Of a stretch of 64,000 nucleotides of DNA, positions 26,917 through 64,000 are shown one piece after another. The notes beneath the pieces are model-generated. The model was not told where the DNA came from. It worked only from the letters and a program-made list of their open reading frames with translations, and ran no database searches. The position numbers were made by a program, and so were the translations under genes. The stretch comes from a virus: positions 1-64,000 of the IMG/VR virus record IMGVR_UViG_3300045988_145033. The stretch is one strand, 5' to 3'. Numbering within the stretch: the first letter of the stretch is position 1; each line of letters opens with the position of its first letter.

Positions 26917-28455
26917 CTAAAGTGGTGTTTTTGGGATTTCTCTTATAATCTTACATCTTCTCTTGCTATAAGGCTTTAAAGCAACCTTTAGTTCCTTTAT
27001 TATATTTATGATATAGCCATCTATATCTTTAAGATTTAGGTTTATTTCTTTAACTTCAGCCTTTAGTATTTTTCTTTCTTCTTTTATAGAATCACCCTTA
27101 TTTACAAGAGATACAAGTTTAGTATCTAAGATAGCTGCGGCTTGCTTCTCATCTATCTTGTATTTCTTTACAAGAGCTTCTATTGAAGATTCTTTATCTT
27201 TAGACTTTCTTATTATACTTATTACGCCATCGTAATTAGTAATTGCTAATTCAAGTCCATCTAATATATGTATTCTTTCTTCCTTTTTCCCTCTTAAAGC
27301 TTCTAAGTGTCTTTCAGACGAGGCTCTATTGGCTTTATGGAATCTTTTCATCATTTCCATAATTCCTATTTTCATAGGTCTACCTTCGTCTATTACTCTC
27401 ATAGATATAGTGAAACTATCGTAGCAAAATCTTGCGGCTATTAGTGCTTCGATAGCATCTTCTACTTTAATATCTTTCTTTATAACTACAACTATTCTTA
27501 TACCTTCTTTAGACGATTCATCTGCGATATCAGCGACCATTTGAGATAGCGGATTTCTCTGGTCACGACACTTATCAACTAAAGAACGTATATCGTTATC
27601 TTTATATCTATTTGGTAATACCGAAGTAAATACTATCTTCTTTTTACCTCTGGTATCGTCTTCTATATGATAGTAACTCATACAGTGATACTTTCCCGAA
27701 CCTGTTTTATAAGCTCTATCTATTCCGTCCCTATCTATAACATAGCAAGGAATTACTGGGTCCGGGGCTTTTAAATACTTTCTTATATTGTCATTTTTAA
27801 GCTCACATTTTATATATGCTTCATAAGCGTTTATAACTTCATATGGGTTATGAGTCGGTATATAAGTTGCCATACCTACTGCAATTCCTATAGCTCCATT
27901 TACAAGTAGCATAGGTATTGGTGGTGCAAGACATATAGGCTCTTTCATCGTATCGTCATAATTAGCTTTATATCGTAGTCCTAGTTGATTGTAGGTTCTG
28001 AATATTAGCTCACTTATCTCGTCCTTATCTACTTCTGTATACCTATAAGCTGCAACGGCATCATCAGCGTCTAAAGAGCCATAATTTCCTTGTCCTACCA
28101 TATAAGGAACGTACATTTTAAAAGGCTGTATAAGCCTTACCATAGCGTCATATACACTTTTGTCTCCATGTGCATGATATTTACCTAATACTTCACCTAC
28201 AAGTCTTGCTGACTTTCTTTTATACGATACATCTTTCATAGCATATAGTATTCTTCTTTGTACTGGCTTTAGTCCGTCTTGAAGTTTTGGTATTGCTCTA
28301 TCAAGTATCACTGACATAGAGTAATCTAGTACGTTATCTTTAAGCTCATCTTCTATTGCTCTTATTCTTATATTCTCTTTTATTTCGGTGTGCTTTACTG
28401 GGTATTTCTCCCTAAGCTTAGCACGGGTTTCTTTACTTAATATCACACGTTTCAT
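26917..28455 (-). CDS. type II DNA topoisomerase, A (breakage-reunion) subunit, phage gp52/GyrA-N-terminal-like
   Basis: GLKPVQRRILYAM, YHAHGD, catalytic AAYRYTE motifs. Confidence 0.8.
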   Translation of the reverse strand: MKRVILSKETRAKLREKYPVKHTEIKENIRIRAIEDELKDNVLDYSMSVILDRAIPKLQDGLKPVQRRILYAMKDVSYKRKSARLVGEVLGKYHAHGDKSVYDAMVRLIQPFKMYVPYMVGQGNYGSLDADDAVAAYRYTEVDKDEISELIFRTYNQLGLRYKANYDDTMKEPICLAPPIPMLLVNGAIGIAVGMATYIPTHNPYEVINAYEAYIKCELKNDNIRKYLKAPDPVIPCYVIDRDGIDRAYKTGSGKYHCMSYYHIEDDTRGKKKIVFTSVLPNRYKDNDIRSLVDKCRDQRNPLSQMVADIADESSKEGIRIVVVIKKDIKVEDAIEALIAARFCYDSFTISMRVIDEGRPMKIGIMEMMKRFHKANRASSERHLEALRGKKEERIHILDGLELAITNYDGVISIIRKSKDKESSIEALVKKYKIDEKQAAAILDTKLVSLVNKGDSIKEERKILKAEVKEINLNLKDIDGYIINIIKELKVALKPYSKRRCKIIREIPKTPL

Positions 28456-33200: not shown

Positions 33201-33538
33201 AGAATATCACCTCTTATTGATTGTGTATAATATTCTCTTAATATTTCTGAATCGCTTTTACCATCGTCCTTTCTACCTTGCTTAAGTTCTTCTATTAAAT
33301 CTTTATGAATAACTCTTACTATATCATCTTCTATTGTAGGTGGTCTAAATACCACCTCATCTTTCTTGGGTTCTTTATACCCAATATATTCCTTTACAGC
33401 TTCCCCTTGTTCTATCCATTTTTGAGCAAGTTCACCTTCAGGGTGTGTTATGAATTCCATTATATTTTCTTCATTTTCTACCATAAATTTATTTATCAAA
33501 CTCATTACTAATTTATTACTCATTTCTGTTACCTCCAT
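33197..33538 (-). CDS. hypothetical protein (113 aa)
   Basis: ORF. Confidence 0.55.
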   Translation of the reverse strand: MEVTEMSNKLVMSLINKFMVENEENIMEFITHPEGELAQKWIEQGEAVKEYIGYKEPKKDEVVFRPPTIEDDIVRVIHKDLIEELKQGRKDDGKSDSEILREYYTQSIRGDIL

Positions 33539-35444
33539 TTTTCTTATTATCTTCTTCTATTTCCTTTTTGTATTTTTCTTCATAAGCTTTCTTGTATGCT
33601 TCATGGTTACTTCTATCGGCATATAATACATCATAGTTCATATGTGATACAGGTTTAAAGTTATCAGGAGATGTCATAACCTCATCAAAGTATCCATAAC
33701 ATAACTTATTTACTATTCCTGTATTATTAACTATACCCTTTTTGTATCCTACAAATGTATAAGACTCATCATCTCTTAAATCTCTTGACCAATCAGGCTT
33801 ATACATTTCTTTGTCTTTATTAGTCACAAATAGACAGTTCTTTAATACAGTTTCTCCAACTATGTATGGAGATTTTAAAAGCTTATTAAGTTCAGCTACT
33901 GGGTCTTTAAACTTAGCTGGATTTTCAAATATAGCCTTTATTTCATTGTATACTTTAGACTTTCTTTTGTTCTTATATACAACGTGCAAGAAGTTATCAT
34001 CTCTTAGCTCAAGTACACCGTCAGTTTCTACAGGGTACACCATTCCATTTACTTCTACGTCAAATCCGTTATAGCATACTCTTTGACTGTCTTTTCTTGG
34101 GTCATCTATTCTATACTTTTCATTTATCACAATAGTACCATTACAGTATATAATATCTGTGTGCTTAACTTGGACATCGATAGTATTATCGTGTCTAAAT
34201 ATTATATTTTCTATAATAGTTATCATATTGTGCTTAGATGATAGATAGTTTTGACCCTCTGGTGCAATGTACTGCTTTACAAACTGAACTCCTAAATTCA
34301 TATTAGCACCAAGTGGTCCTTTTACATTATCAAAATATGTATGCTCTCCTGTACAGTATCTACATATACCTTCTTTAGAATTACAAGTAAAAGGACTTCT
34401 AACCTTAATAGTTTTCCCAATTAAGTCAGTTCTATCTTTAGTTATAAGCTCGATATCTCTTGGGTGATTACTGTCGTGTATCATATATCTATCATTTAGC
34501 TTATCAAGAACTTCTTGTGATTCTACAAAGTATTCTACATATGCTTTTGAATCACACATATAATCTGGATTAGGATTTAAGTAGTTTGGATTGTTAAGAT
34601 ATGATATAGTCTTTTGAAATGCACCCGGGTCTTTTATCTCAAGTTTAGTTATTATAGTTGCACATCTTGAGATATATGATTCATAATAGAAGCTCTCAGG
34701 TGTTGATATTCCACGAAGCCAAGACTCTTTCTCTATATTAGGTATAACTTCATCTTGGTCGGGACGAGAACCTATCATAAACAGACAGTCAACAAACTGT
34801 GCAAGACGAAGTCCAGTTCCTGCTTTTACAAGAGAACGCAAAGGTTGTATATCTTTTTCTTCGACTACTTTTGATATGTAATCAAGTGTGTGCTTTTTAA
34901 GTTCTTCCACTTCAAATAAACTCATATCGTCTCTTTTAACTGGACCGTTTATAATCCAGTCTTTAAGGGTTTCATCAGCATCACAAAGTTCAAATATATC
35001 AAGCATTGATATATCTATCATCTTTTTATTATCGACTACCCAAGCAAACTGAACAAACGCTTCTTTTATTTCACCTACGATAGATGCTACGTCAAAGAAC
35101 TTCATATTCATTCTATTAAAGCACTCATCTTTCACCATTTCCACATATTCATTTTGACTATCAACATTACCAGAACCCGTGAATATAAAATCCTCAAGTC
35201 TTTGCTCTTGTCCGTCGAGTATATGGTGCTTATCAAGAGTTGTAAATAAAAGCCAGTTCATAATAGCTTTAGCAAACTTCATTTTAGCTATCTTCTCACC
35301 TTTATAAGTTACAGTAACTCTAGTTTCAAGCTTTCCTATATCCCAGTAATCATCAACAAACAACTTTGGTGAAAACTCTGCAATAAGTGGTAAACCTAGT
35401 TCATTTACCTTACTCCAGACATCTGCCATTACTTCATTCTTCAT
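33516..35444 (-). CDS. multisubunit RNA polymerase beta'-like subunit, C-terminal fragment (bridge-helix and trigger-loop region) - split phage RNAP subunit
   Basis: KVRSPFTCNSKEGICRYCTG matches RpoC VRSVVSCDTDFGVCAHCYG; TPESFYYESYISR aligns with bridge-helix TALKTANSGYLTR; no NADFDGD motif, so N-terminal half is elsewhere. Confidence 0.55.
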   Translation of the reverse strand: MKNEVMADVWSKVNELGLPLIAEFSPKLFVDDYWDIGKLETRVTVTYKGEKIAKMKFAKAIMNWLLFTTLDKHHILDGQEQRLEDFIFTGSGNVDSQNEYVEMVKDECFNRMNMKFFDVASIVGEIKEAFVQFAWVVDNKKMIDISMLDIFELCDADETLKDWIINGPVKRDDMSLFEVEELKKHTLDYISKVVEEKDIQPLRSLVKAGTGLRLAQFVDCLFMIGSRPDQDEVIPNIEKESWLRGISTPESFYYESYISRCATIITKLEIKDPGAFQKTISYLNNPNYLNPNPDYMCDSKAYVEYFVESQEVLDKLNDRYMIHDSNHPRDIELITKDRTDLIGKTIKVRSPFTCNSKEGICRYCTGEHTYFDNVKGPLGANMNLGVQFVKQYIAPEGQNYLSSKHNMITIIENIIFRHDNTIDVQVKHTDIIYCNGTIVINEKYRIDDPRKDSQRVCYNGFDVEVNGMVYPVETDGVLELRDDNFLHVVYKNKRKSKVYNEIKAIFENPAKFKDPVAELNKLLKSPYIVGETVLKNCLFVTNKDKEMYKPDWSRDLRDDESYTFVGYKKGIVNNTGIVNKLCYGYFDEVMTSPDNFKPVSHMNYDVLYADRSNHEAYKKAYEEKYKKEIEEDNKKNGGNRNE

Positions 35445-37359: not shown

Positions 37360-38112
37360 TTAGAAGATTTCGAAACCACCTTTCCAGTAGTTTCTAGTCC
37401 CTATCTTAAGAGTAGGAAACTCTTCCTTTATCGCTTGTGCGATATGAGTAACATCGTCCATTTCGGGCACGGGGAAATCACACCCTTGGACTTTATTATA
37501 CTTTCTAAGCGTCCAGAATACATTATCGAACTTAGATATGACACTTGCGATTTCTCTAAGTTCGTCAAGGCTTGTGTCTCCGAATACTGGAGTTCTTATA
37601 TCAACTAAAACTCCATTTTCTTGACACAATTTAATAATTCTTTCTTGGTCCATAACTGGTTTGGCAACTCCAGTTATTTTAACCAATCTGTCACTATAGA
37701 ATGCCTTGAAATCTATAGCAACATAGTCTAGGTATTTTACTAGACTTTTAACTAGCCCATAACTGCTACCATTATGAGCTATTGATATTTTTTGTCCAAA
37801 TTTGTTCATTACATATTGGGCTATATGTAATGATTCAGAAGGATAAGCCGCGGGGTCTCCCCCGCTTAATCTAATCCTTCTTCCTTTAGAAGCTTCAATA
37901 TCTATCAAAGCTTCTAAGTCACTCATTTTAATGTCGTGAGTGTTGATGACGTTGCCAGCATCATCGTAGAATTGACAGTCCCTTTTACAGTAAGGACAAC
38001 TGTAATTACAATCACCAAAAGAAACGATTGCCATTTCTTCTGGTGTTCTATTGAATGCTTGTAGGAAGTAAGCCTTTCTCACTTCCAAATTTTTTCTTTT
38101 AATTAATTTCAT
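37360..38112 (-). CDS. radical SAM activating enzyme, NrdG-like (anaerobic ribonucleotide reductase / glycyl-radical enzyme activase family)
   Basis: CNYSCPYC (CxxxCxxC) cluster and RIRLSGGDPAAYP matching NrdG GISLSGGDPLHP. Confidence 0.6.
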   Translation of the reverse strand: MKLIKRKNLEVRKAYFLQAFNRTPEEMAIVSFGDCNYSCPYCKRDCQFYDDAGNVINTHDIKMSDLEALIDIEASKGRRIRLSGGDPAAYPSESLHIAQYVMNKFGQKISIAHNGSSYGLVKSLVKYLDYVAIDFKAFYSDRLVKITGVAKPVMDQERIIKLCQENGVLVDIRTPVFGDTSLDELREIASVISKFDNVFWTLRKYNKVQGCDFPVPEMDDVTHIAQAIKEEFPTLKIGTRNYWKGGFEIF

Positions 38113-38488: not shown

Positions 38489-39229
38489 TTATTCTATACA
38501 ATACATCTTCGCACAAATATCTAAAATTGTTGCAATCATTTCTATGAAGTAGTCTTCCTTATCTAATAAGTAATCATCTACTAATGTCTCAAGGTCTTCA
38601 CTATCATAACTGTGTCCAAAATAGCTATCAACTACCTTATCTCTTATTTCGTAGATATTTTGCTCTGATATTCTTTCAGTAAATAATCCAAACCATATTC
38701 TTTCAGCTTGAGCTTTAATATCACTATAACCATATTTATCTCTTAAATCTTTATTAGATGTGTAATCACGTTCACAGAATTCTTTATACATCCTCTTAGC
38801 ATTTACTATAAGTGTAGTATCTATATCCCAAGGTTTCTTGTTAAGTTTTGCTACAGTTTGTTTATCTTTCCAAGGTTCGCAGATATTACATACAGTTTGT
38901 AAAAGAGCAAGTCCAACAACAGCAGATGTTGAATATATCTCAGTTTCTCCATTATCAAAATAATTCTTTGAGTATCTCTCTAAATCTGAAGCTTGTAAAT
39001 AATCATCTCTGATTTCATTGTCGATTACTTCATTACATATATAGCTTATAGCATTACTATCTAATCCTCTAAATAAAGAATTCCATAAATAATGTACCTC
39101 ATCTCTAAATTCTTCAAACTCGTGTGCACATTCTACCCAAGCTACTTCATTATTTGGTTTATCCCATACTCCAAATAGATACATTCCTTTTTCAAATAAC
39201 TCCTTCTTTAACACTGCTTTAATTTTCAT
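38489..39229 (-). CDS. hypothetical protein (246 aa)
   Basis: ORF; family-A-like promoter 39236-39285. Confidence 0.6.
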   Translation of the reverse strand: MKIKAVLKKELFEKGMYLFGVWDKPNNEVAWVECAHEFEEFRDEVHYLWNSLFRGLDSNAISYICNEVIDNEIRDDYLQASDLERYSKNYFDNGETEIYSTSAVVGLALLQTVCNICEPWKDKQTVAKLNKKPWDIDTTLIVNAKRMYKEFCERDYTSNKDLRDKYGYSDIKAQAERIWFGLFTERISEQNIYEIRDKVVDSYFGHSYDSEDLETLVDDYLLDKEDYFIEMIATILDICAKMYCIE

Positions 39230-39284
39230 TTCAATTCCTCCTTAAAAATTTTAATATGACTTTCGTCTACTTATATAATATATA

Positions 39285-39316
39285 GAAGAAAAGAATAATG
39301 GTGGCTAAGCCACCAT
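39285..39316 (-). terminator. terminator hairpin atggtggcTAAgccaccat
   Basis: 8-bp stem downstream of 124-aa gene. Confidence 0.55.
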
Positions 39317-39321
39317 CTTAA

Positions 39322-39696
39322 TTATTCTGGATTTTTAAGTTTATTAATAGTTTCTTGAATATTAACTCTTAAGTCTGCGACCTCAGCTCCAAACTTATCT
39401 TTCAGCTTTTGAATTGAGTTTGTGTAAAGCATATAGTATTTAGACGCATCTTTTAAATCATCATCATCTATATCTTTACCTTTAGCAACTGCTACAGCAA
39501 GAGTTGTATCAACCCCGTAATCAAGCGTTTTCTTTACATCTTCCCTAGCTTCTTCCATTATTTGCTTTACTATATTAGATGGTGTATTATATAAGTTACA
39601 TAAAGTTTCTAATTTGTCAAGTGACAAAGGAACACCTGTTTCTCTTTCATCAGCAAGAACTATAGTAGCTACAACAAGAGCATTATTTTGTGCCAT
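39322..39696 (-). CDS. hypothetical protein (124 aa)
   Basis: ORF. Confidence 0.55.
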   Translation of the reverse strand: MAQNNALVVATIVLADERETGVPLSLDKLETLCNLYNTPSNIVKQIMEEAREDVKKTLDYGVDTTLAVAVAKGKDIDDDDLKDASKYYMLYTNSIQKLKDKFGAEVADLRVNIQETINKLKNPE

Positions 39697-39744
39697 ATTA
39701 AAACCTCCTACATTTATATTAAAATCTATAATCGTGTTTTGAAA

Positions 39745-39756
39745 AACACCTTTTTG
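39745..39756 (+). promoter_or_regulatory. AACA-N6-TG late-type promoter motif (AACAccttttTG)
   Basis: 29 nt upstream of ATG 39785. Confidence 0.4.
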
Positions 39757-39784
39757 ATATCTAAATAAGGGGGTTTTGGTAAAA

Positions 39785-42001
39785 ATGGAACTTAAAAATA
39801 CATATACATCTCAGATAGCTGAGATATTTAAAAGTAAAGAAACTTTAAAAGAAAACTGGATAAAATCAATAAAAAATAAGATAAGACTTGATGATATTAA
39901 ATCGCAAGAGTTATCAAGTATTTTTGATAAAGCATTCAAAGAAACTCGTATACAATATACAAACTCAGTACAAGGAAAGACAAGAACTCTAGGTGCACTA
40001 GAGTTTATTTATAATACATATAAAGACGAAAAGATACTTGTAGAAAACGGAGTAATATTTCGTAACTCAAGAGAAGTATTTGCTCCTACTGTGGAGTCTG
40101 AGATATATCTTTTCAAAAGAAGAAAGACAGTTAAGAAATTAGGTAACTATTGGCTTACAGAAGGGAATGACCCAATAGTTGGAGCGATATATGATAACTT
40201 GCAAAAGAATATAAAGATACTTATGAATACGTACTATGGGGTACTCACAAATCCATATTCGAGATTTTACAATAGAGATTTAGGAGATAGTATTACTATG
40301 CGTGGACGTTCATCTATATCAGTATCAGCTCTTTCTATGGAAGGAGCATTTGCTAAGAAGATACCACAAGAAACTGAAGCACTTCTTGCTTATTTTGATA
40401 GATGCTCGAAATCTCAGATAGATAAAGATATAATGTGTGATATGAGTTTTCTATATATGAATATTATGAAAGATAAAGATGAAATAGAAGAACTTTTAAA
40501 AGAGTTTCATTTAGAAAATCATTACGACAGAGAGCTTCTTGTAAGAATACTATGTGAATATACTACTCAAGATAGATGTAAGATATACTTTAAAAATAAC
40601 TTTAAAAGAATATCAGAACTTCACATATTTAAAAAGAATGTAATAGATTTCATGAAAGATAGTATAGAACTTAAGACACCGTTTCTTGACCCTAATGAAA
40701 TACCATTTGATAATGCTAAGGGTTATATAGAAGATTTAAGAAGAATAGTGTCTCAAGGACTTACAGGAATGTATTGGTATGGTGGAGATTATATCCAAGA
40801 AAGAGAGATACTTGTTAAGAACTCACAAGATGTAATACAAAGTATAGATAGAAAGGTTATACCGGTAATAGACACGGACTCTAACTTCTTATCTTATGAA
40901 ACTGAATATAATATATTATATGATATACTTAAAAATTCTATATCTTGTATGCCAGCAAAAGATGATGACAATACTTTCTACACTATATCTAATATATGTG
41001 CTATTGTGATGACAGAGGTTATAGATAGTGCTCTTGCGAGATATAAGACTTATGTAAATATACTTCCTGAGAAGAATGGTTGCTTGAAATTAAAGAATGA
41101 ATTTTTATATTTAAAACTTCTTATAACTTCAAGAAAGAAAAACTATATAGGACTTATATCATTAAAAGAGGGTAAACCTTATCCTAAACCTAAACTAGAT
41201 GTAAAAGGATTGGTATTTAAGAAATCGTCAGTAAACTCAAATATCGGTGAAGAGGTTGAATCTATTGTATCTAAACTTCTAAAAGATGATACTCTTAATA
41301 TAAATGATATACTTGCAAGAACTAGAGCAACTACAAATATGATACTAGATGCTCATAAAAACCAAAAGCTTTTAGATTACTGTGTAGCACTAAAGCTTAA
41401 GACTAAACTTGAAGAAACTGATATATCTGATTATAGATGCAAAATGGTAACTTTATGGAATGCTCTTGCTGAAAACGAAAGAGATATAATTATAACACCT
41501 GCAACTTTTTACTCTATTCCTATAAAGATTACAGATAAGTTTAGAAATAAATACCCAGAAATATATGGAAAAATTAAAGCGTGGCTTGACGAACGAAACA
41601 CAATTTTGATTAAAACTCAGATAAATGAGATACTTTCGGACTCTAAGAATAAGAAGTTTCGATTCCTTTCCTTTATGGACCAAAACTTTGACTTGTCTAC
41701 TATAGACTCAGCAGACTCGTGGGTACAAATGCGAAAAGACGCAATGAAACTTAAAAGAGATAAAGGTATAAAGATGCCTTCCGAAGATGTATCTTACTGG
41801 AGTGAAGACGATATATCAAAGATAGCATACCCTATAACGTCAGAAGTAGTTCCAGAATTTATCTTAGATTTAGTGAACGCCGACAATTCATTAGTTCTTG
41901 TCAATTCCCTTTTAGCACCTGTAATTCAAGAGCTTCATGTTTTATGTCCAAGAAATAGTGATGGTAAAAGACTTGTAACTAATATTGTCGAAAGATACTA
42001 G
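39785..42001 (+). CDS. family B DNA polymerase, C-terminal portion only (motifs B, C and KKRY; motif A and exonuclease domain absent)
   Basis: KILMNTYYGVLTNPYSRFY (KxxxNSxYG), VIPVIDTDSNF (YGDTDS-like), SRKKNYIGL (KKRY); ATG 39785 behind AAGGGGG; ORF track TTG 39776 less likely. Confidence 0.7.
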   Translation: MELKNTYTSQIAEIFKSKETLKENWIKSIKNKIRLDDIKSQELSSIFDKAFKETRIQYTNSVQGKTRTLGALEFIYNTYKDEKILVENGVIFRNSREVFAPTVESEIYLFKRRKTVKKLGNYWLTEGNDPIVGAIYDNLQKNIKILMNTYYGVLTNPYSRFYNRDLGDSITMRGRSSISVSALSMEGAFAKKIPQETEALLAYFDRCSKSQIDKDIMCDMSFLYMNIMKDKDEIEELLKEFHLENHYDRELLVRILCEYTTQDRCKIYFKNNFKRISELHIFKKNVIDFMKDSIELKTPFLDPNEIPFDNAKGYIEDLRRIVSQGLTGMYWYGGDYIQEREILVKNSQDVIQSIDRKVIPVIDTDSNFLSYETEYNILYDILKNSISCMPAKDDDNTFYTISNICAIVMTEVIDSALARYKTYVNILPEKNGCLKLKNEFLYLKLLITSRKKNYIGLISLKEGKPYPKPKLDVKGLVFKKSSVNSNIGEEVESIVSKLLKDDTLNINDILARTRATTNMILDAHKNQKLLDYCVALKLKTKLEETDISDYRCKMVTLWNALAENERDIIITPATFYSIPIKITDKFRNKYPEIYGKIKAWLDERNTILIKTQINEILSDSKNKKFRFLSFMDQNFDLSTIDSADSWVQMRKDAMKLKRDKGIKMPSEDVSYWSEDDISKIAYPITSEVVPEFILDLVNADNSLVLVNSLLAPVIQELHVLCPRNSDGKRLVTNIVERY

Positions 42002-42004
42002 GAG

Positions 42005-42433
42005 GTGATAATTATGACAGGTATGAAAGACTTTATTGTACATACAGTAAAAGAGATTAAGGATATATTCGGAAGCATACTAGCTAAAGTTCTATTCTTC
42101 TACATATCGTATAAAGCGAAGAAGCTTTTATCTCTTATATCGACTGTATATATAGACGGAGTTAAATATCTCATCGAGTCAAGAGACACGATAAATGGTA
42201 AATTAAAGCTTTTCTCTAAAGATAAAGGATATTTAAACTTAGAACAAGATATCCTTTTAAGTGCTATAAAAGGAGCATTAGAAAAGCAAACTAATCCATT
42301 TGTCCTCAATGACAAAGATGTTCAGCTAACGTCCCTTAATATAATAAAAGAAAAAGTATCAAAACCGTTAGCTGATTTTATAAATATAAAGAATAAAAGA
42401 GTTACTCTTGATTTCAAGAGTATAGATAAATAA
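42005..42433 (+). CDS. hypothetical protein (142 aa)
   Basis: ORF. Confidence 0.55.
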   Translation: MIIMTGMKDFIVHTVKEIKDIFGSILAKVLFFYISYKAKKLLSLISTVYIDGVKYLIESRDTINGKLKLFSKDKGYLNLEQDILLSAIKGALEKQTNPFVLNDKDVQLTSLNIIKEKVSKPLADFINIKNKRVTLDFKSIDK

Positions 42434-42445
42434 GGAGGCTTTAAA

Positions 42446-43324
42446 ATGAAAGGTGCAATGAAAGAAAACTTTTTTGGGGATATAATGGAATTTATAAATG
42501 GTTCGAAAGAACCATTTATAAATCTTTCAGATTACAATAAAAAGGATAAACTATTCTTTTTTGATATGTCTTTATATCTTTTTATATCAAATAAACTTAA
42601 TTCATCATTTAAAGAAAAGGGACAAGATAAGATTGAGTTTACAAAAAATAGTCCTGAGAAAGATTGGTTTAAATCAAATAATATAAATTCTTGGATAGAG
42701 TTTGTATTCTTTATGAAAGAATGGAGAGAAAAGAATAATAATACTAAGAGTGTAATAGATATGGAAGAAGTATCTCATATAGGTTTATTTAAAGGATACT
42801 ATGATGAGTTCTTCTTGCTTTACAAGAAGTTCCCTAAGATACTATGGGTTACAGCTCTTAGTAATCATAAGATAGAAAATATAGACGGAACTCAATACTA
42901 CTTCATAGATGAACTAGAAGAAATTACAGTTCTTATAGCTATGAATGCTTGGGTGAGACACTTAATGGATAAACACGATAGATACTTTGCTGAGCTTATA
43001 AATACAGAATCTGAGGGACAAGAAAGATTTATAGAATACATAAAAGACTATGTTAAAAATGGATTACCTGAAAATCACGATAGTATTTTAGATTATATAG
43101 GTTACGCTATCTTTATGTCGGGAGTTCAATATTCTAATAAGTTCTTAAGTGAGAATAAGGATTTAATAGGAATGAAACTAGATAAGTATTCAAATAAGGC
43201 TATATCTAAAAGGCTTATAAACGTATTTAAAGAATATATGTGTAATATGCCTAAAGAAGATAACCCTACAAGACCTCGTGAGCTTATAGATAAAATAAAA
43301 GAAATAGAGCATAATGTAAAGTAA
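42446..43324 (+). CDS. hypothetical protein (292 aa)
   Basis: ORF with AAGGAGG RBS. Confidence 0.6.
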   Translation: MKGAMKENFFGDIMEFINGSKEPFINLSDYNKKDKLFFFDMSLYLFISNKLNSSFKEKGQDKIEFTKNSPEKDWFKSNNINSWIEFVFFMKEWREKNNNTKSVIDMEEVSHIGLFKGYYDEFFLLYKKFPKILWVTALSNHKIENIDGTQYYFIDELEEITVLIAMNAWVRHLMDKHDRYFAELINTESEGQERFIEYIKDYVKNGLPENHDSILDYIGYAIFMSGVQYSNKFLSENKDLIGMKLDKYSNKAISKRLINVFKEYMCNMPKEDNPTRPRELIDKIKEIEHNVK

Positions 43325-43331
43325 AGAGATA

Positions 43332-43349
43332 TGGTAGGCTTTCGCCTAC
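43332..43349. repeat. hairpin ggtaggcTTTCgcctacc, copy 1 of 21-nt exact repeat atggtaggctttcgcctacca (copy 2 at 43631-43651)
   Basis: exact duplicate 300 bp apart, no U-run. Confidence 0.7.
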
Positions 43350-43380
43350 CATAAAACTGATATTTATTGCGATAAATAAA

Positions 43381-43392
43381 GGACGCCTGAAA
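43381..43392. repeat. GC-rich motif GGACGCCTRAAA, copy 1 of 3 (others 43703-43714, 43825-43836)
   Basis: 12-mer thrice in 455 bp of a 29% GC genome. Confidence 0.6.
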
Positions 43393-43448
43393 TATATCCG
43401 AAAGGATTTCTATAGCAAATTAAAAGCAGTACCAAATCTTTGTTGTTA

Positions 43449-43482
43449 GATTATGGCTGGGCTCCATGCCCCAACCATAATC
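43449..43482. ncRNA. stable composite hairpin gattatgg-ct-gggcTCCATgccc-caa-ccataatc (possible structured RNA or protein-binding site)
   Basis: 8-bp outer and 4-bp inner perfect stems. Confidence 0.3.
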
Positions 43483-43961
43483 CGTCCTTACATGATTAAT
43501 GTTATGAAAGTAATATCTCTGAAAAAATAGAATTTTCATGAATATTTCAAAAAATGCAACGGGACACCCAAAATAATGAATAATATTCAAATTAGTTACA
43601 CCATAGTGTTCTGTAAAAATGCAAAGACTTATGGTAGGCTTTCGCCTACCACTTGTCACCTCTTAATTTGTATAAAGATTAATCATACAATAGCTTACAA
43701 TAGGACGCCTAAAATGTATATTACAATCAATACACTTTTGTGTTACGTATTTAATTAAAAATGTGAGTGTAGTTGATGTATCTATAACGATGAACTTAAC
43801 TATCAATATCATTAGTTTGGTAAAGGACGCCTAAAAGCAGTAACCAAAAATATACTTTGCGTAGCGATACTACGCCTATTAGCCATATCTATTTACTGAA
43901 AGGAGAAAATACAATACACACTCACATTCAAGAAAGTGTTGTGTAATTTGTCAATATTTGG

Positions 43962-43973
43962 AACAATTTTTTG
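43962..43973 (+). promoter_or_regulatory. AACA-N6-TG late-type promoter motif (AACAatttttTG)
   Basis: 20 nt upstream of ATG 43993. Confidence 0.4.
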
Positions 43974-43992
43974 ATAAATGGAGGTGAACTTA

Positions 43993-46512: not shown

Positions 46513-48426
46513 TTATAATTGTCCGTTTTTAAAGCTTTCTACATCGTATTGGTCCGGCATAGTTATTTGGTTAGTACCAAGTAGTGCTATAACTGCTCCA
46601 GTTGCCGCATCAAGTATTTTCTTTTCAGCGTCAATAGAGTTAAGTACCTTAAATGTAGTTATGTCTTTTAAAGTGCAAGTTTCACCTTTATATAACTTAT
46701 CAAGTAACACTCTTAAATCAAATGATTCTCTTATAATAAGTTTAGGGTCTTTATCTTCCATTCTATCAAAGTATTCGTTAAGTTGAGACGTTTCGTGGTT
46801 TTCAGATTCATACACTGCTTCGGTTAGATTAAATCCTACACTTTCAAATAGTATTTCTACTAAGTGAATATAAGCCATATTGATTCTATTAGCTATAGCT
46901 CTTTTTATCTTATCCATTGAATTTCCTGTCATTTTATATTTTAGATATACTTCTAAATAAGTTTTAGGAATTATAGTAGACATACCACCACAAACTCCTG
47001 AAGCTACAGCTGATTTTATAGCTCCTACCGCATCATCAACAGCTCCTAGTTTTCTATCTACTTCCCAAGAGTTATCAGCTCCAACTACTATTTCAGCATA
47101 CTTTCCATTTATTCTTCTTATTCTTGCTTTTATAGCATCAGCTCTTCCTTTATCATCTTTTACAAGAGCTAATTCTTCTTCAAGCTCTTTTACGTGTCCC
47201 TCGGCTCTTACTTTATCAAAACCAAATAAAGTAACTTGAGTTTTACTCATAATAGCATCTACTGGATTTATTGCTCCAACTTTTAATAGATTTTCTACAT
47301 ATGAAGAAACTGTGAAATCTAACTCTTCTTCTGTAAATTCTTCTATATTATCAGGGAATATATCTCTAAGTTTCTTATCAAGTTCATATGCTTGTGGTTG
47401 TCCTATCAAATATTCAAAGTCTTTATGTTCTTCTTGCGATAGTATTGTTCCAGTATAAGCATACTCGAGTATATAGATAGGTAAGAAGTCTACATTATAT
47501 TTAGTCTTATACCAATTTCTAACTTGTAGTATTTCTCTTTCAACTACATCTTTATATTGAAGATTATAAGTTATAAATACAACTGGAGACATATTTTCAA
47601 TACCAACACCGTGACCATTCATAAACTCTATCATATTATAAGCAACTTTAGCATATAGTTTCATAAGAGCTCTTATACTATCAGCCGATGCAATATTATT
47701 ATCAACTATAACTGGTATTATCTTCTTTCTTAAAACTGCTTTAGGAAATCCTAAAGGTCCTTGTTGTATAGTATATCCTTCTTTTACAGAATAGTTAGTT
47801 TTAGCTTGAGTTCCGTCTGCTTTATAAGTTACAGAGATATTAGATAAGTCTTCTCCGTCTCTTGTAATCTCTTTTAAAGCTCCTATTAAAGCATCTTTAA
47901 GTTCTGTATCATTATTTACAGAAGTTTCTATAATACCTATTAAATCACTTAAATCAGCTTGAGCAAACACTTTATGGTCGTCCATTTCTTTTTTGAAAGA
48001 TTCCACTACATCTTTAATTAAATCATTAAAGAATTGTGCTGGTAAGTTACTTTTATCTCTAAGCTCAGCTAAAGACTTATATAAATCAGCTATAAGTATT
48101 GTAGTAGTTGTAGTACCGTCTCCAGCTGTTGATAGAACTCCTAGCATAGATGATAATACAAGTTGCTTTAAAGCTTGTGCTACAGGGTGAAAGTATTTAG
48201 TTTTAGATAAAAGAGTATATCCGTCTTTTGTAATAGATGCAAGCACTGCACCATTATCTCCTGATTTTTGTATCATAAGAGTTGAAGCACCTATTGGACC
48301 ATAACTCTTTTTAACTACATCTGCCATATCATCAAGTATATGAGATATGTGCTCACTATTCATCACTGTGTGATTTGTCTCCAAAAGTATTTTCTTCGGT
48401 TGTTCCACTTTCTCTGTCATGTTCAT
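46513..48426 (-). CDS. GroEL-like chaperonin (phage-encoded, 637 aa)
   Basis: AGDGTTTTTILIADL (GroEL GDGTTTATVLA), DDAVGAIKSAVASGVCGGMS (GroEL DALxATRAAVEEGxVxGGG); RBS AAGGAGGA. Confidence 0.75.
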   Translation of the reverse strand: MNMTEKVEQPKKILLETNHTVMNSEHISHILDDMADVVKKSYGPIGASTLMIQKSGDNGAVLASITKDGYTLLSKTKYFHPVAQALKQLVLSSMLGVLSTAGDGTTTTTILIADLYKSLAELRDKSNLPAQFFNDLIKDVVESFKKEMDDHKVFAQADLSDLIGIIETSVNNDTELKDALIGALKEITRDGEDLSNISVTYKADGTQAKTNYSVKEGYTIQQGPLGFPKAVLRKKIIPVIVDNNIASADSIRALMKLYAKVAYNMIEFMNGHGVGIENMSPVVFITYNLQYKDVVEREILQVRNWYKTKYNVDFLPIYILEYAYTGTILSQEEHKDFEYLIGQPQAYELDKKLRDIFPDNIEEFTEEELDFTVSSYVENLLKVGAINPVDAIMSKTQVTLFGFDKVRAEGHVKELEEELALVKDDKGRADAIKARIRRINGKYAEIVVGADNSWEVDRKLGAVDDAVGAIKSAVASGVCGGMSTIIPKTYLEVYLKYKMTGNSMDKIKRAIANRINMAYIHLVEILFESVGFNLTEAVYESENHETSQLNEYFDRMEDKDPKLIIRESFDLRVLLDKLYKGETCTLKDITTFKVLNSIDAEKKILDAATGAVIALLGTNQITMPDQYDVESFKNGQL

Positions 48427-49105: not shown

Positions 49106-49339
49106 CTATACCCTCCACATACTCATCATATACATTAAAGCAACAATAGAAAAACCTATTACAAATGCTATTCCTCTTGCTTTTCTTTTATTACCTTTTT
49201 TGATATGCTTTTTGTATCTTTTTATATTAAGTAGTACAGCATATTGTAGCATCACCATAAATATACCTGTCTTCATAATAGACGTGAATATAGTAGCGAT
49301 AACGTATTTTAAATAAGCATCACTCATTATCTTCATCAT
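49106..49339 (-). CDS. small membrane protein, 2 predicted TM helices (77 aa; holin-like?)
   Basis: hydrophobic segments + basic linker. Confidence 0.45.
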   Translation of the reverse strand: MMKIMSDAYLKYVIATIFTSIMKTGIFMVMLQYAVLLNIKRYKKHIKKGNKRKARGIAFVIGFSIVALMYMMSMWRV

Positions 49340-50822
49340 AATTAGAACCTCCTTTTTTATGAGTTATATCTATTTCTTTCCAGTCTTTGAATTCTTCATC
49401 AAAGAACTTATAAAGCTTTCTATAATATCTTTTAGTTTCAGAAAAACTCTTATCCACAGCTTTAATGTATATTCCAGTTTCTCCACCAACCCGTCCGTTT
49501 CTTCCTGTAGCTTGTTTAAATATCGAGCCCCCTGCATAAGTTTCCATATCTATTGTAAGTTTAATCTTAGATATATCAAGTCCTCTACCAATACTGTCAG
49601 TAATTGATATTATAAAAGGTTTTGTAAGAGCATTCGCTCTTTCTCCTTTTGGGAGTTCTGAATGAAACTCAGATACATGCTTTGCTGGGATATTAAACTT
49701 ATCCATTACCCATTCCTTTATAAGCTTACAATTTTCTATCTTACCTGTCATTATAACTATCTTATATCCCTTGTCCATTTCATATATAGGTATAGCGTGA
49801 GTTTTTATTATCTTCTCTAGTATATTAAAATACCCTTCCGATGCTATAGCTACAGCCATATGCTTATCAGGAACAAACTGTCCTTTGAAATTATAACAAG
49901 ATTGTCTTACTTTTTGTAAAGGTTTTGACTCCCAACCATAAACGTAAGCTATTCTATTTGGCTTTTCTGTATAAAACTCTTTACCATATTTTGGTATAGT
50001 TTTAATCATCTTTTGAAAAGCACTATCATCAAACTGTCCATTTTTAAATGTAGTTGCTGATAAATATAAGTTATATCTCACAGAAGTTGTAAAGTCTAGC
50101 TTTAGCATACTGTCTACTTCTGTATCAAACTCATCAAATATCTTAAGTCCTATTTTATTTTTAATACACCATTCAGCAACGAATGGAGAACCTTTTTGCT
50201 CTATTATAGAACGTAGAGTTGCGTGAGTGGTTACAAATACTTTATATCCTAAATCTTCTTCATAGGTAGATAAAAACCATTTAGAACCATTCATAGCACA
50301 CACGTATCTTTGACGAAGCTTTGTATGATTAGCAAATGAACCTTTCTCTCCTGCCCATTGATTTAAAAGAGTATTTGTCTTAACTAGAACCAGTATATTA
50401 CAACCAAGTTCTGATGCTATAGCAGTTGCTGTAAATGTCTTACCTCTTCCTGTAGGCATATCTATTATAACTTGAGTTTCCCCACGTCTAAATTCCTTTA
50501 AAGCTAGAGTTATAACTTTCATTTGCTCAGGAAACGGCTTTTTATTAACATTAAAGAATTTCTTATTATCACAAGGGAATGCAAGTCCTTTATGAATACT
50601 TCCATATACATTCAATTTATTCATAAGAAATGTATCTCCTATACCTCTTGGAACTCTTAAGTTATCAGGAGATAATAGATAACAAAATGGTTCTTTTTCT
50701 TCTGTGATATAGTTTACTGTCGATAAAGAATCCATTAAATCTTGAGCATAAAACATTTCTCTTTTCTTATTATTTTTATCAAATTCTATTTTATAAAAAG
50801 TGGTAAATTTAGTAATCTTCAT
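49320..50822 (-). CDS. SF2 (DEAD/DExH-like) helicase (500 aa)
   Basis: MPTGRGKT (motif I), FDEFD (II), SAT (III), QATGRNGR (VI). Confidence 0.75.
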   Translation of the reverse strand: MKITKFTTFYKIEFDKNNKKREMFYAQDLMDSLSTVNYITEEKEPFCYLLSPDNLRVPRGIGDTFLMNKLNVYGSIHKGLAFPCDNKKFFNVNKKPFPEQMKVITLALKEFRRGETQVIIDMPTGRGKTFTATAIASELGCNILVLVKTNTLLNQWAGEKGSFANHTKLRQRYVCAMNGSKWFLSTYEEDLGYKVFVTTHATLRSIIEQKGSPFVAEWCIKNKIGLKIFDEFDTEVDSMLKLDFTTSVRYNLYLSATTFKNGQFDDSAFQKMIKTIPKYGKEFYTEKPNRIAYVYGWESKPLQKVRQSCYNFKGQFVPDKHMAVAIASEGYFNILEKIIKTHAIPIYEMDKGYKIVIMTGKIENCKLIKEWVMDKFNIPAKHVSEFHSELPKGERANALTKPFIISITDSIGRGLDISKIKLTIDMETYAGGSIFKQATGRNGRVGGETGIYIKAVDKSFSETKRYYRKLYKFFDEEFKDWKEIDITHKKGGSNYDEDNE

Positions 50823-55945: not shown

Positions 55946-58900
55946 TTATATAGATTTTCCTTTACAAATTCTATCAATAAGTTTATAAAAGTCATCATTA
56001 GAATTCATACCAGAACTTCCCATTGTAACTGGAGTAGGGTTACCATTGACCGTAGTCATTACATTGTATCCATTTAGTGCAAGATTTGTCTTCTTACCAG
56101 TTACAGCTTCTATGAATGTAGCAAATAGCTTATTCATATTACGTAACTCTCCTAAAATAGCTTCAAGTAATTTAGTTTCACCATTTTGTTCCATACCTTG
56201 AGAACGATTTATGAATTTTACCAAGTTTTCATTTATTTCATTTAAAATACCAGTCTGAGTTTGACTATGTTTTGCTGATGCTTGTATACCAGCTTTTATC
56301 TTATCTGTAGATAAAGCAATAGAGTTTGATGATTTAGCAACACCATCATCACTACCTTTTCCAGATAAGTTCATAGTCTTTGTATATTGCTCTGCCGCAT
56401 TATATGTCATATCACGAGATACACGTCCATATCCTGCAAGAACTGGCTCAACCACTTTTTCTTTAAATGTACCATAAGCTCCTTTTATGATATCTACCAT
56501 AGAAGCAGTTTTCTTTGCAAGTTTTACAGATGCTTTTTCTTTGTATATCAAAATTGCTTTTGCCATACGAAGACGTTTGTCATTTACTGAAACTTGCTCA
56601 GATGAGTTCTTTTCCGGGTCATTTATATAAATCTTACCATTTACCATCTCTTTACCTATTATGAAATGTGGTGCACCAGTTGATGATACTGTAAGAAGTA
56701 TAGGAGAACGTCCGGCACGTAGTTCACTTACAAATCTTGCAAGTACCTTATCATTAAATATAACAGAACGTATTTTATGCTCAGCTAGTATATTTACGAA
56801 ATACTTCATAGGCGTACCAGCTTTAGGTGATGATTTCATAGCAACAGCTTTACGTACTAAATCTTCCATATTGTATCTTATCTTTAACTTATCAAGAAGC
56901 ATAGCCATAACAGCAGGACCACAACCAGCTTCTCTAAATCTAAGTCCTCCACCCATTCCAAGTTTATTCCACTTTCCTGAGTTTTGTGATACGTGTTTCA
57001 TAGGTCCAAAACCTTCGTTACCAGCTTTTAATCCTTCTTGTTGCTTTGCTGACGTTTTAACTTTTTGAGTTACGCTATATGGGTCAAAGGCATCAACAAC
57101 ATATCCGTCAAACCCCATAAATTGTGCTGCTTCTTTTGTAGACGGATATTTAGATGCTGAGAAATTAGCAACTTCTCTTCCTCTTACGTGTCCATCTCCA
57201 TCTTTGTCCATTCCGTGATTTGCTTTATATTCCGCTGAACCACGCGAATAAACTGGCTTATCTGGATGATATCCTAAAGACTTAGGATAATGTAAGTAAG
57301 AATATAAGTTATATAGGTTAGGAGGATATTTACCCAAGCCTTTTATCCATCTAGGTCCAACTCTTTTTAATTGCTCAAGTGGCGTGAAACTTCCCGGAAG
57401 TTCATTAGGTGCAAACCCCCAACCTTTTCTGTAACTCTTCATTACTTGGAAAAGTCCAGATGCTCCACCGTTACTATTATATGCGTCAGGTTGCCAAGTT
57501 GACTCAGAATAAGATACAGCTAACATATTTCTCGCAACATCTACTCCCCATTGAGAAACAGCATAATCCCACATTTCTTTCATTTGCTTCCTATATTGTG
57601 GGTTCTTAGCTTTTTGCATAAGCCCCATATTCTTAGTGACTCCAGTTATAACATTTCCACCACTAAAATCTCCTGAACTTGAATCTTCTGCTACAACATT
57701 GCCGTTTTCATCTAGGTTAAATCCTAAAGATGTTGCTAAATTTTTCACAGTAGCACCTATATCGAAGTTTTTGATAAATTCATATCTATCTCCAAATTTA
57801 GAAGCATTGTCATCATCTATCATAGCTTGCATATCAGATTTAGCTTTTGTAGCTTCTTGAGTTGTTGTATCAACTTTTGTAAGCTTACCGTCTGGAGTTA
57901 CAGGTCCAAATCCTTGATAAGCTCCATATCCGTCACTATCAGTTTTATATTTATCATACAACTTACTATTCTTTTTAGCTATGTCTTCTTTTTCTTTTTT
58001 ATCTTTCTCTTCTTGTTGCTTTTTAAGTTTTTCTTGATTTTCTTTTCTCTTCTTTGCATCTTCGTCACGTTTCTTCCAATAATCTGGGTCTTTTAAATCA
58101 TAATCGCTATCAGCATCTGGGTCATATCCATAATCAGTCTTATCAACATCACCATTTGCTTCTTCTTCACGCTTAGCTTTATATTCTTCATATTTGCTCT
58201 TACCCCATTCTTTTAATTCTTCTTCTTCTCTCTTCTTAGCTTCTTCTTTATCACTTTCTTCTTTATTAAAAGCTTCTAGTGCTTCTTTTGATTTCCATTC
58301 GGATTCATCAACACCAGATACCCATTCGTAGAACCACACAACCATATCATCTATAGGGATAGCAGCAAGCCACCATACTTTAGATGATGCTAGTCCCCAT
58401 AATAGTTCCACAAAACCTGATGCAAATTTCATACCAGTAGTTATGTAATCAGAACCTACGTTGAAATAATCTCTTGCGTGTCTCCAACCATGAATAAAAT
58501 CATATATTGCAAATATTCCGTCTACTATAGCTCCTACTGGTGGTAATGCGTAAGATGCAGAACGAGTAACATTTTTAGCTGTCTTCTTAGCGGCTTTCTT
58601 TGCAGCCTTTTTACTCATCTTTTTAGCAACAACTTCTATTCCGCCTTTCTTTAAAAGTTTTTCAGCAAATGCTTTAGTAAGCTTATAATTAAGAAGTTTT
58701 CTTAACATCTTTTCTATAAACTCTTTAAACCATTTACCAATAGCGGTTTCTGTTATTTGCTTTACTCCACGTTCAGCCAGATTTTGAGCACCTTTTCTAA
58801 ACGCTTCGTTTTTAAATAAACCATTTTTAGCTATTCTAAGTCCAGTTTGTTGAATATTATGAGTTACAGTTTCTCCAGTTCTTCCAGTAGAGTTTATAAA

Positions 58901-63949: not shown

Positions 63950-64000
63950 AACAGACCTACCGAAAGTAGATAAAGTTGCATTAGATGATAAAGATGCAGT

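Follow-up and report, generated by a model that had tools for sequence, protein, structure and literature searches.

The 64,000-nucleotide (nt) stretch of viral DNA considered here, positions 1 to 64,000 of the IMG/VR record IMGVR_UViG_3300045988_145033 and referred to below as the window, carries on its plus strand at 39785..42001 an open reading frame (ORF) of 738 amino acids (aa) whose product is very likely the C-terminal subunit (DNAP-C) of a family B DNA polymerase divided into two chains. The initial annotation, made from the sequence letters, had described this ORF as the C-terminal half of such an enzyme, and held the polymerase to be either split into separately encoded polypeptides or trans-spliced. 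The frame starts at ATG 39785, 11 nt after a plus-strand ribosome-binding site, AAGGGGG (39767..39773), read from the sequence, and its stop codon ends at 42001; the annotation of the Fusobacterium nucleatum phage JD-Fnp1 and the gene call on the source contig in ENA agree. An upstream TTG at 39776, from which an ORF tool listed the frame as 39776-42001, was rejected as the start, given that it sits right on the ribosome-binding site and is unused in both the JD-Fnp1 annotation and the contig gene call.

Homology of this ORF to known polymerases is far above chance. Its product matches PF20286, the Pfam family "Divergent Family B DNA polymerase" (divDNApol), at 72.9 bits (E 2e-20) against a curated cut-off of 25.7 bits, PF00136 at 49.9 bits (E 3e-13), and DNA-polymerase families of PHROG with a best E value of 5e-34. 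Archaeal PolB and Pol alpha chains from the PDB align to it only from their residue ~460 on (~460-580 for the archaeal chains). The order of relatives in tblastn runs from the JD-Fnp phages through the "DNA-polymerase catalytic subunit" of AR9/PBS1 and the Staphylococcus jumbo phages to phiKZ-like phages such as SPN3US, with AR9 g152 matching at 24% identity across aa 5-601 (E 4e-25). Likewise, a profile built from the ORF and its relatives matches phiKZ gp50 in hhalign with 99.5% probability (E 8e-23, 556 columns, gp50 residues 85-724), with motif B, DTDS and KKxY in register between the two. A large protein search recovered 25 C-half relatives of 575-750 aa, all of which carry PF20286 and all but one PF00136 as well (24/25); none has an exonuclease domain, so that every relative recovered shows the split.

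The motifs named in the initial annotation are all present. Motif B (KILMNTYYGVLT) was located by sequence scan at aa 144-155 (nt 40214-40249, plus strand, as are all features of this gene); motif C, VIDTDS, with the catalytic pair D363/D365, lies at aa 361-366 (nt 40865-40882), where its DTDS is invariant and aligns with that of phiKZ gp50; and the KKxY motif, KKNYIG, belonging to the palm strand that binds the primer terminus, lies at aa 451-456 (nt 41135-41152). In a 24-sequence family alignment K144, N148, Y151, G152, D363, T364, D365, S366, K451, K452 and Y454 are invariant, and D363 is the first invariant acidic residue, with none earlier. Nor is there a match in the ORF to the motif A pattern D..[ST][LMIV][YF]P or, in Pfam, to the exonuclease domain PF03104, so that pattern scan, Pfam and alignment concur with the claim that motif A and the exonuclease motifs are lacking.

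Around these motifs the protein divides into recognizable domains. The fingers helices, motif B included, occupy aa ~103-190 (40091..40354), corresponding to PF00136 profile positions 127-201 and to archaeal PolB residues 460-545. From motif B to motif C the spacing is ~205 aa, as against ~50 in archaeal PolB, and the helical insert of ~160 aa that separates the fingers from motif C (aa ~192-355, 40358..40849, approximate bounds) would represent the second segment of a palm insertion, judging by hhalign to phiKZ gp50 221-419 and by AlphaFold2 (AF2) helices at 197-325. The first such segment, helical and with similarly approximate bounds (aa 1-100, 39785..40084), is a predicted docking surface for the N subunit by reference to phiKZ DNAP-C 1-98 and to the AF2 model, in which helices (7-50) are followed by a hairpin (55-70) and a further helix (71-80); up to about residue 70 the assignment is drawn solely from this helical prediction. 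The thumb begins at approximately aa 480 (~480-738, 41222..41998), where AF2 places helices at 485-715 with a predicted local distance difference test score (pLDDT) of ~85-93, and the PF20286 and gp50 alignments reach gp50 residue 724. The model as a whole (pLDDT 78.5) shows ~100 helical aa at the N-terminus, motif B on long helices of the fingers, the ~160-aa helical insert, a motif C hairpin, a KKxY sheet and a confident thumb, and its best PDB folds are RB69/T4 gp43 (RB69 gp43, E 6e-5).

The ORF with exonuclease motifs and motif A for which the initial annotation had proposed a genome-wide search exists in the relatives and not inside the window. In JD-Fnp1 it is gene 178, annotated "DNA polymerase", which encodes 805 aa on the minus strand (177568-179985), adjoins the portal gene, and contains YYDIETD (Exo I), FNAVYD (Exo II), YNMIDV (Exo III) and DADALSMYPMIV (motif A). 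Its product aligns with AR9 g132 at 23% identity (E 3e-18), collinear from the N-terminus through motif A and including all four motifs, matches PHROG 3011 "DNA polymerase" (3e-21), and lines up with phiKZ gp82 at Exo II, Exo III and motif A. Across 12 homologues down to 30% identity D153/E155, N275/D279, Y390/D394 and D522/D524/S527/Y529/P530 are invariant. The AF2 model of this N half (DNAP-N) finds RB69 gp43 as its best PDB match (E 4e-12, ~450 columns); a whole-chain Foldseek search returned only RB69 matches, all from the exonuclease part. A different candidate for the N half, JD-Fnp1 gene 60 near the primase gene, gave a weak match to AR9 g132 that Pfam did not support, and was set aside. 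In AR9 itself the two genes are annotated "exonuclease + partial catalytic domain" (g132) and "catalytic subunit" (g152), and their Staphylococcus relatives "exonuclease subunit" and "catalytic subunit". AR9 g132 ends in IDFDLSSLYPSII, which is motif A, and the PF00136 profile is shared out between the two AR9 proteins, positions 45-91 on g132 and 103-211 on g152; the break therefore falls just after motif A.

Both halves are conserved together. The ORF protein is 98-98.5% identical in the F. nucleatum phages JD-Fnp1, 4, 6 and 7 (174-180 kb; tblastn), and in 4/4 of these genomes the two halves lie ~25 kb apart on opposite strands. The same holds for a 169-kb metagenome contig whose halves are ~48-50% identical to these: both are present, 25.8 kb apart and on opposite strands, with the same neighbours: the N half is followed by the portal gene and then the giant gene, and the C half is preceded by a divergent 124-aa gene. 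On two IMG/VR contigs the N half adjoins the same flank. The first of the two alternatives in the initial annotation, separately encoded polypeptides, is thus borne out by a partner carrying Exo I-III and motif A in every sequenced relative.

Within the window the partner is absent. Pfam searches of the ten largest other ORFs returned topoisomerase, chaperonin and helicase matches and no PolB, tblastn of AR9 g132 and JD-Fnp1 gp178 against the window gave nothing below E 1, and DxxS[LM]YP occurs in none of the six frames of the 64 kb; the partner gene would therefore lie outside the window. Where it lies is suggested by the source contig. The window is identical to ENA contig ERZ989422 k127_13743, a 178,673-bp contig from a human oral metagenome, over the two stretches compared (19,863/19,863 and 22,217/22,218 nt), and is about 90% identical to JD-Fnp1, 4, 6 and 7, being collinear with JD-Fnp1 at 78-94% nucleotide identity. 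Past the end of the window its own contig continues with the giant gene and then the portal gene. Given that this is the order found in JD-Fnp1, the DNAP-N gene is expected ~3.6 kb beyond position 64000.

A structural precedent for two such halves exists. In phiKZ, gp82 (DNAP-N, 638 aa) and gp50 (DNAP-C, 731 aa) form a stable, RB69-like 1:1 heterodimer, described at 2.1 Å by cryo-electron microscopy in a 2026 preprint (PMC13648687). There the chain is interrupted within a sizeable helical domain, the "palm insertion", which is made up of DNAP-N 589-638, DNAP-C 1-98 and DNAP-C 221-419, and the catalytic residues are divided, with the motif A Asp (D562) on the N subunit and the motif C Asp (D426) on the C subunit (PMC13648687). 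Together gp82 and gp50 polymerise and proofread in vitro; D562A on the N subunit was designed as a polymerase-dead change, and a double pol/exo mutant showed neither polymerisation nor degradation (PMC13648687).

In light of this precedent, the ORF is most probably (about 93%) the DNAP-C of a two-subunit family B replicative polymerase of the phiKZ/AR9 type, whose separately encoded partner DNAP-N joins it in a non-covalent 1:1 heterodimer. Both halves are homologous to such enzymes in sequence and in fold, both retain conserved catalytic residues, and they co-occur in all relatives; heterodimer formation, the palm-insertion interface and activity would follow by homology to the phiKZ cryo-electron microscopy and biochemistry. 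DNAP-C would provide the thumb, the fingers with motif B, and that part of the palm in which the KKxY strand and the two Asp residues of motif C lie, and would add two helical palm-insertion segments (aa 1-100 and ~192-355), while the other catalytic Asp, on the motif A palm strand, would come from the 805-aa DNAP-N together with the N-terminal domain and the 3'-5' exonuclease (Exo I-III). The two would be translated independently and then assemble non-covalently at 1:1, DNAP-C docking on DNAP-N through the shared palm insertion to create a composite active site, so that neither half would polymerise alone.

Several points weigh against this assignment. The argument for a complex, and for its activity, in this phage lineage would draw on a single system, phiKZ. 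The presence of DNAP-N in the window's own genome is a prediction from synteny up to the portal gene and from its occurrence in all relatives. The pairwise match of the N half to phiKZ gp82 is weak (E 0.011), a Pfam search with the JD-Fnp1 gene 178 product found no match, and the pLDDT of the N-half model falls below 50 over 407-553, the motif A region, which is expected for an isolated half but lends the reading no positive support.

The most durable of the competing explanations, and even so a very improbable one, is that the ORF is a self-sufficient polymerase without an exonuclease, to which a stand-alone exonuclease supplies proofreading loosely in trans. It takes some encouragement from Iyer et al. 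2021, who describe a group 1 jumbo-phage polymerase with no fused exonuclease and such a protein encoded elsewhere (PMC7824862), but it fails because motif A sits on the other protein: the C half lacks motif A and its invariant acidic residues begin only at D363, every N-subunit homologue aligned keeps the motif A Asp, and the PF00136 profile is divided between two proteins in AR9. The active site of phiKZ is likewise composite, and the polymerase-dead change was designed into the N subunit as D562A (PMC13648687).

Slimmer still are the prospects of protein trans-splicing, by which a split intein would join the halves post-translationally into one chain. The halves are indeed encoded far apart, the N half runs ~280 residues past motif A as against ~75 in AR9 and phiKZ, and inteins and introns interrupt the polymerase genes of related Staphylococcus jumbo phages (bioRxiv 10.1101/2020.12.14.422802). 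Yet no intein or Hint family matches the C half at E<=1 or the N half at E<=0.1, and the C half contains no HN[CST] at all, its first Cys being residue 207. Its N-terminal 100 aa are predicted to be helical rather than to adopt an Int-C beta fold, and are homologous to phiKZ DNAP-C 1-98, a segment retained in the mature complex; the N-half extension, for its part, is predicted with confidence to fold as a domain and is kept in homologues as distant as 44% identity. Trans-splicing, the second alternative in the initial annotation, is thus largely refuted, and the accompanying proposal to look for intron and intein signatures yielded none, whether by Pfam in both halves or by Rfam in the window. 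Splicing at the RNA level, by a group I or II intron, was discarded as well: Rfam has no match at gathering score in the whole window and none at E<=1 in 39000-42700, and each half has its own start, stop and strand. Least probable of all is that the ORF is the decaying remnant of a complete PolB, with another polymerase replicating the phage, a possibility that the initial annotation had itself raised and that the absence of half the canonical domains might invite, but 12 relatives, down to 46% identity, keep an unbroken frame of 738-750 aa, none of the catalytic residues varies, and the sole JD-Fnp1 genes annotated as DNA polymerase are gene 160 (the C half) and its partner gene 178.

That a family B polymerase can be divided in this way is already known, from phiKZ, from the GenBank annotation of AR9, from the Staphylococcus relatives, from PF20286 and from the 2026 phiKZ structure. 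The "split subunit DNA polymerase" of phiKZ was itself recognised about ten years after that phage was first sequenced (PMC5105663), and the divergent PolB of group 1 jumbo phages is on record (PMC7824862); the paper describing JD-Fnp1 makes no mention of DNA polymerase, jumbo phages, phiKZ or AR9. What is specific to the present lineage is the Fusobacterium host, a genome below 200 kb, the lack of any chimallin, PhuZ or Rhc detectable by tblastn, and an additional domain on DNAP-N.

The resemblance to phiKZ gp82/gp50 extends to the partition of domains (N-terminal domain, exonuclease and motif A on one chain; fingers, motif C, KKxY and thumb on the other), to the size of the C subunit (738 aa for the ORF, 731 for gp50), to the presence and collinearity of both palm-insertion segments, and to the placement of the two genes far apart in a genome that also encodes multisubunit RNA polymerase subunits. 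There are also differences: identity is ~17% at the profile level, the genome of ~179 kb lies below the 200-kb jumbo threshold, and the Fusobacterium-phage N subunit, at 805 aa, carries a ~200-aa extra C-terminal beta-rich domain. Chimallin (gp54), PhuZ (gp39) and Rhc (RNase H-clamp, gp155) of phiKZ have no tblastn homologue in the JD-Fnp1 genome or in the window; for chimallin and PhuZ the search covered the whole JD-Fnp1 genome and the window at E<0.1 and, being one of pairwise sequence only, counts as a weak negative. A third subunit was sought by tblastn with E. coli RnhA and phiKZ gp155, again with nothing found and again as weak negatives. Chimallin, the protein of the nuclear shell, and usually the tubulin PhuZ are encoded by the nucleus-forming Chimalliviridae, to which phiKZ belongs. 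Going by these sequence comparisons, the Fusobacterium phage, which does have multisubunit RNA polymerase genes and the split polymerase, looks AR9-like rather than nucleus-forming.

Among isolates, the closest homologues of both halves are g132 and g152 of AR9/PBS1 and their counterparts in Staphylococcus jumbo phages (S6 and the MarsHill group). With AR9 the lineage shares the split point, just after motif A, and the settings of both genes, the C half being divergent from a small gene and beside an RNA polymerase beta'-like gene, and the N half near the portal gene. It differs in that AR9 g132 stops ~73 aa past the motif A Asp, as against ~280 aa in the Fusobacterium-phage N half, and in that the AR9 N half matches PF03104 and PF00136 whereas the Fusobacterium-phage N half matches no Pfam family; from the MarsHill group it differs in that introns and inteins occur there and none were found here (bioRxiv 10.1101/2020.12.14.422802). 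More distant is the precedent invoked in the initial annotation, gp43A/gp43B of T4-like phages. It serves as an analogy, since in the Aeromonas phages 25 and 44RR a family B replicase does consist of two polypeptides that co-purify and are active (PMC2988022), but it does not extend to gene arrangement or ancestry: those cistrons lie side by side, with an intercistronic insert or a seg homing endonuclease gene between them (PMC2988022). They arose by the recent division of a gp43 that is otherwise of the classical T4 type, whereas in the present lineage ~25 kb separates the halves, which lie on opposite strands and belong to the PF20286 family, a different PolB clade. RB69/T4 gp43, finally, is the best structural match for each half separately and has the same catalytic motifs, but is a single chain of 898-903 aa with no palm-insertion domain and works with a ring sliding clamp.

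The extra domain of the N subunit merits separate consideration. In JD-Fnp1 gene 178 ~280 residues follow motif A, compared with ~75 in AR9 and phiKZ, and the last ~200 (aa ~590-805, L006:5569-6219) are confidently predicted by AF2 as a beta-rich domain (pLDDT 75-90) that is kept down to 44% identity within the clade and for which no homologue was found outside it. Because the extension is absent from phiKZ gp82 and AR9 g132, and because no Rhc homologue is detectable, it could conceivably stand in for the Rhc of phiKZ, as a DNA-binding or processivity module integral to the polymerase. This would make the enzyme a differently organised split replicase, in a phage of less than 200 kb for which pairwise sequence search gave no chimallin, but it is improbable.

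Beyond the polymerase itself, its immediate surroundings are conserved. The gene upstream is indeed divergent, as had been claimed: it lies on the minus strand at 39322..39696, encodes 124 aa, matches no family, and is conserved in position, the same gene being present in the 48%-identical relative L016 and AR9 g153 occupying the same place. Two genes follow downstream according to the contig gene calls (42014..43324, plus strand; 139 and 292 aa, no PHROG match), are probably co-transcribed with the polymerase gene, and are themselves followed by a hairpin at 43330-43353. On the other side, at 33516..35444 on the minus strand, lies a gene for a 642-aa subunit of a multisubunit RNA polymerase (PHROG 3015 "RNA polymerase beta subunit", 5e-27; RNA polymerase beta' in the JD-Fnp1 annotation). 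Its proximity to the DNAP-C gene matches AR9, where g154, annotated as non-virion RNA polymerase beta', stands beside g152, and several RNA polymerase subunit genes are annotated in JD-Fnp1. Phages with multisubunit RNA polymerases, group 1 of Iyer et al., are those in which the split polymerase of this type occurs.

The region also has noncoding structure. After the polymerase operon comes an ORF-free gap of 650 nt (43325-43977), which contains two copies (43330-43353 and 43629-43651) of a 34-nt repeat that includes a perfect hairpin, TATGGTAGGC-TTTC-GCCTACCATA, and three copies of the motif AGGACGCCTRAAA (43380, 43702 and 43824), which has no other copy in the 64 kb and of which 0.08 would be expected. 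Within the gap the stretch 43393-43655 has a folding z of -3.6, and the gap has no Rfam match and no tRNA match. It may hold one or more small RNA genes with their own promoter motif and terminator. Terminator-like hairpins are over-represented in 39200-42600 (7 against 0.8 expected); among them are a two-way hairpin separating two minus-strand genes (39297-39317) and hairpins at 39806-39827 and 39984-40006, both inside the polymerase gene towards its 5' end.

Several further minus-strand genes of the window deserve mention. The giant gene (55946-64000) runs past the window end and was listed at 2667 aa by the ORF tool, from an internal ATG, and at 3029 aa on the source contig; it has faint Peptidase_C39 matches, corresponds to a 3026-aa papain-like cysteine protease in the JD-Fnp1 annotation and reaches 3407 aa in a distant relative. 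A GroEL-like chaperonin is encoded at 46513-48426 (PF00118, 2e-21; 60 kDa chaperonin in JD-Fnp1), and a stand-alone protein resembling subunit A of gyrase or topoisomerase IV at 26917-28455 (PF00521, 1e-105), JD-Fnp1 having a second "gyrase subunit A" gene elsewhere in its genome. At 37360-38112 lies a gene for a radical SAM protein (CNYSCPYC), with weak PHROG matches to QueE-like proteins and anaerobic ribonucleotide reductase and a precomputed Pfam Radical_SAM match. A superfamily 2 helicase (ResIII/DEAD/Helicase_C; 49320-50822) is homologous to phiKZ gp75 (tblastn 2e-6), and its JD-Fnp1 name, "Cas system-associated protein", looks like a misnomer.

For annotation, the ORF is best named "DNA polymerase, C-terminal subunit" and linked to its 805-aa N-terminal counterpart beside the portal gene. 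Beyond this the significance is small. With this finding the known range of the phiKZ/AR9-type split replicase comes to include Fusobacterium nucleatum phages from the human mouth, with genomes of ~179 kb, and it adds, in the extra domain of the N subunit, a lineage-specific feature with a possible DNA-binding role. More broadly, that phages without detectable chimallin have the split is consistent with its predating the nucleus-forming lineage.

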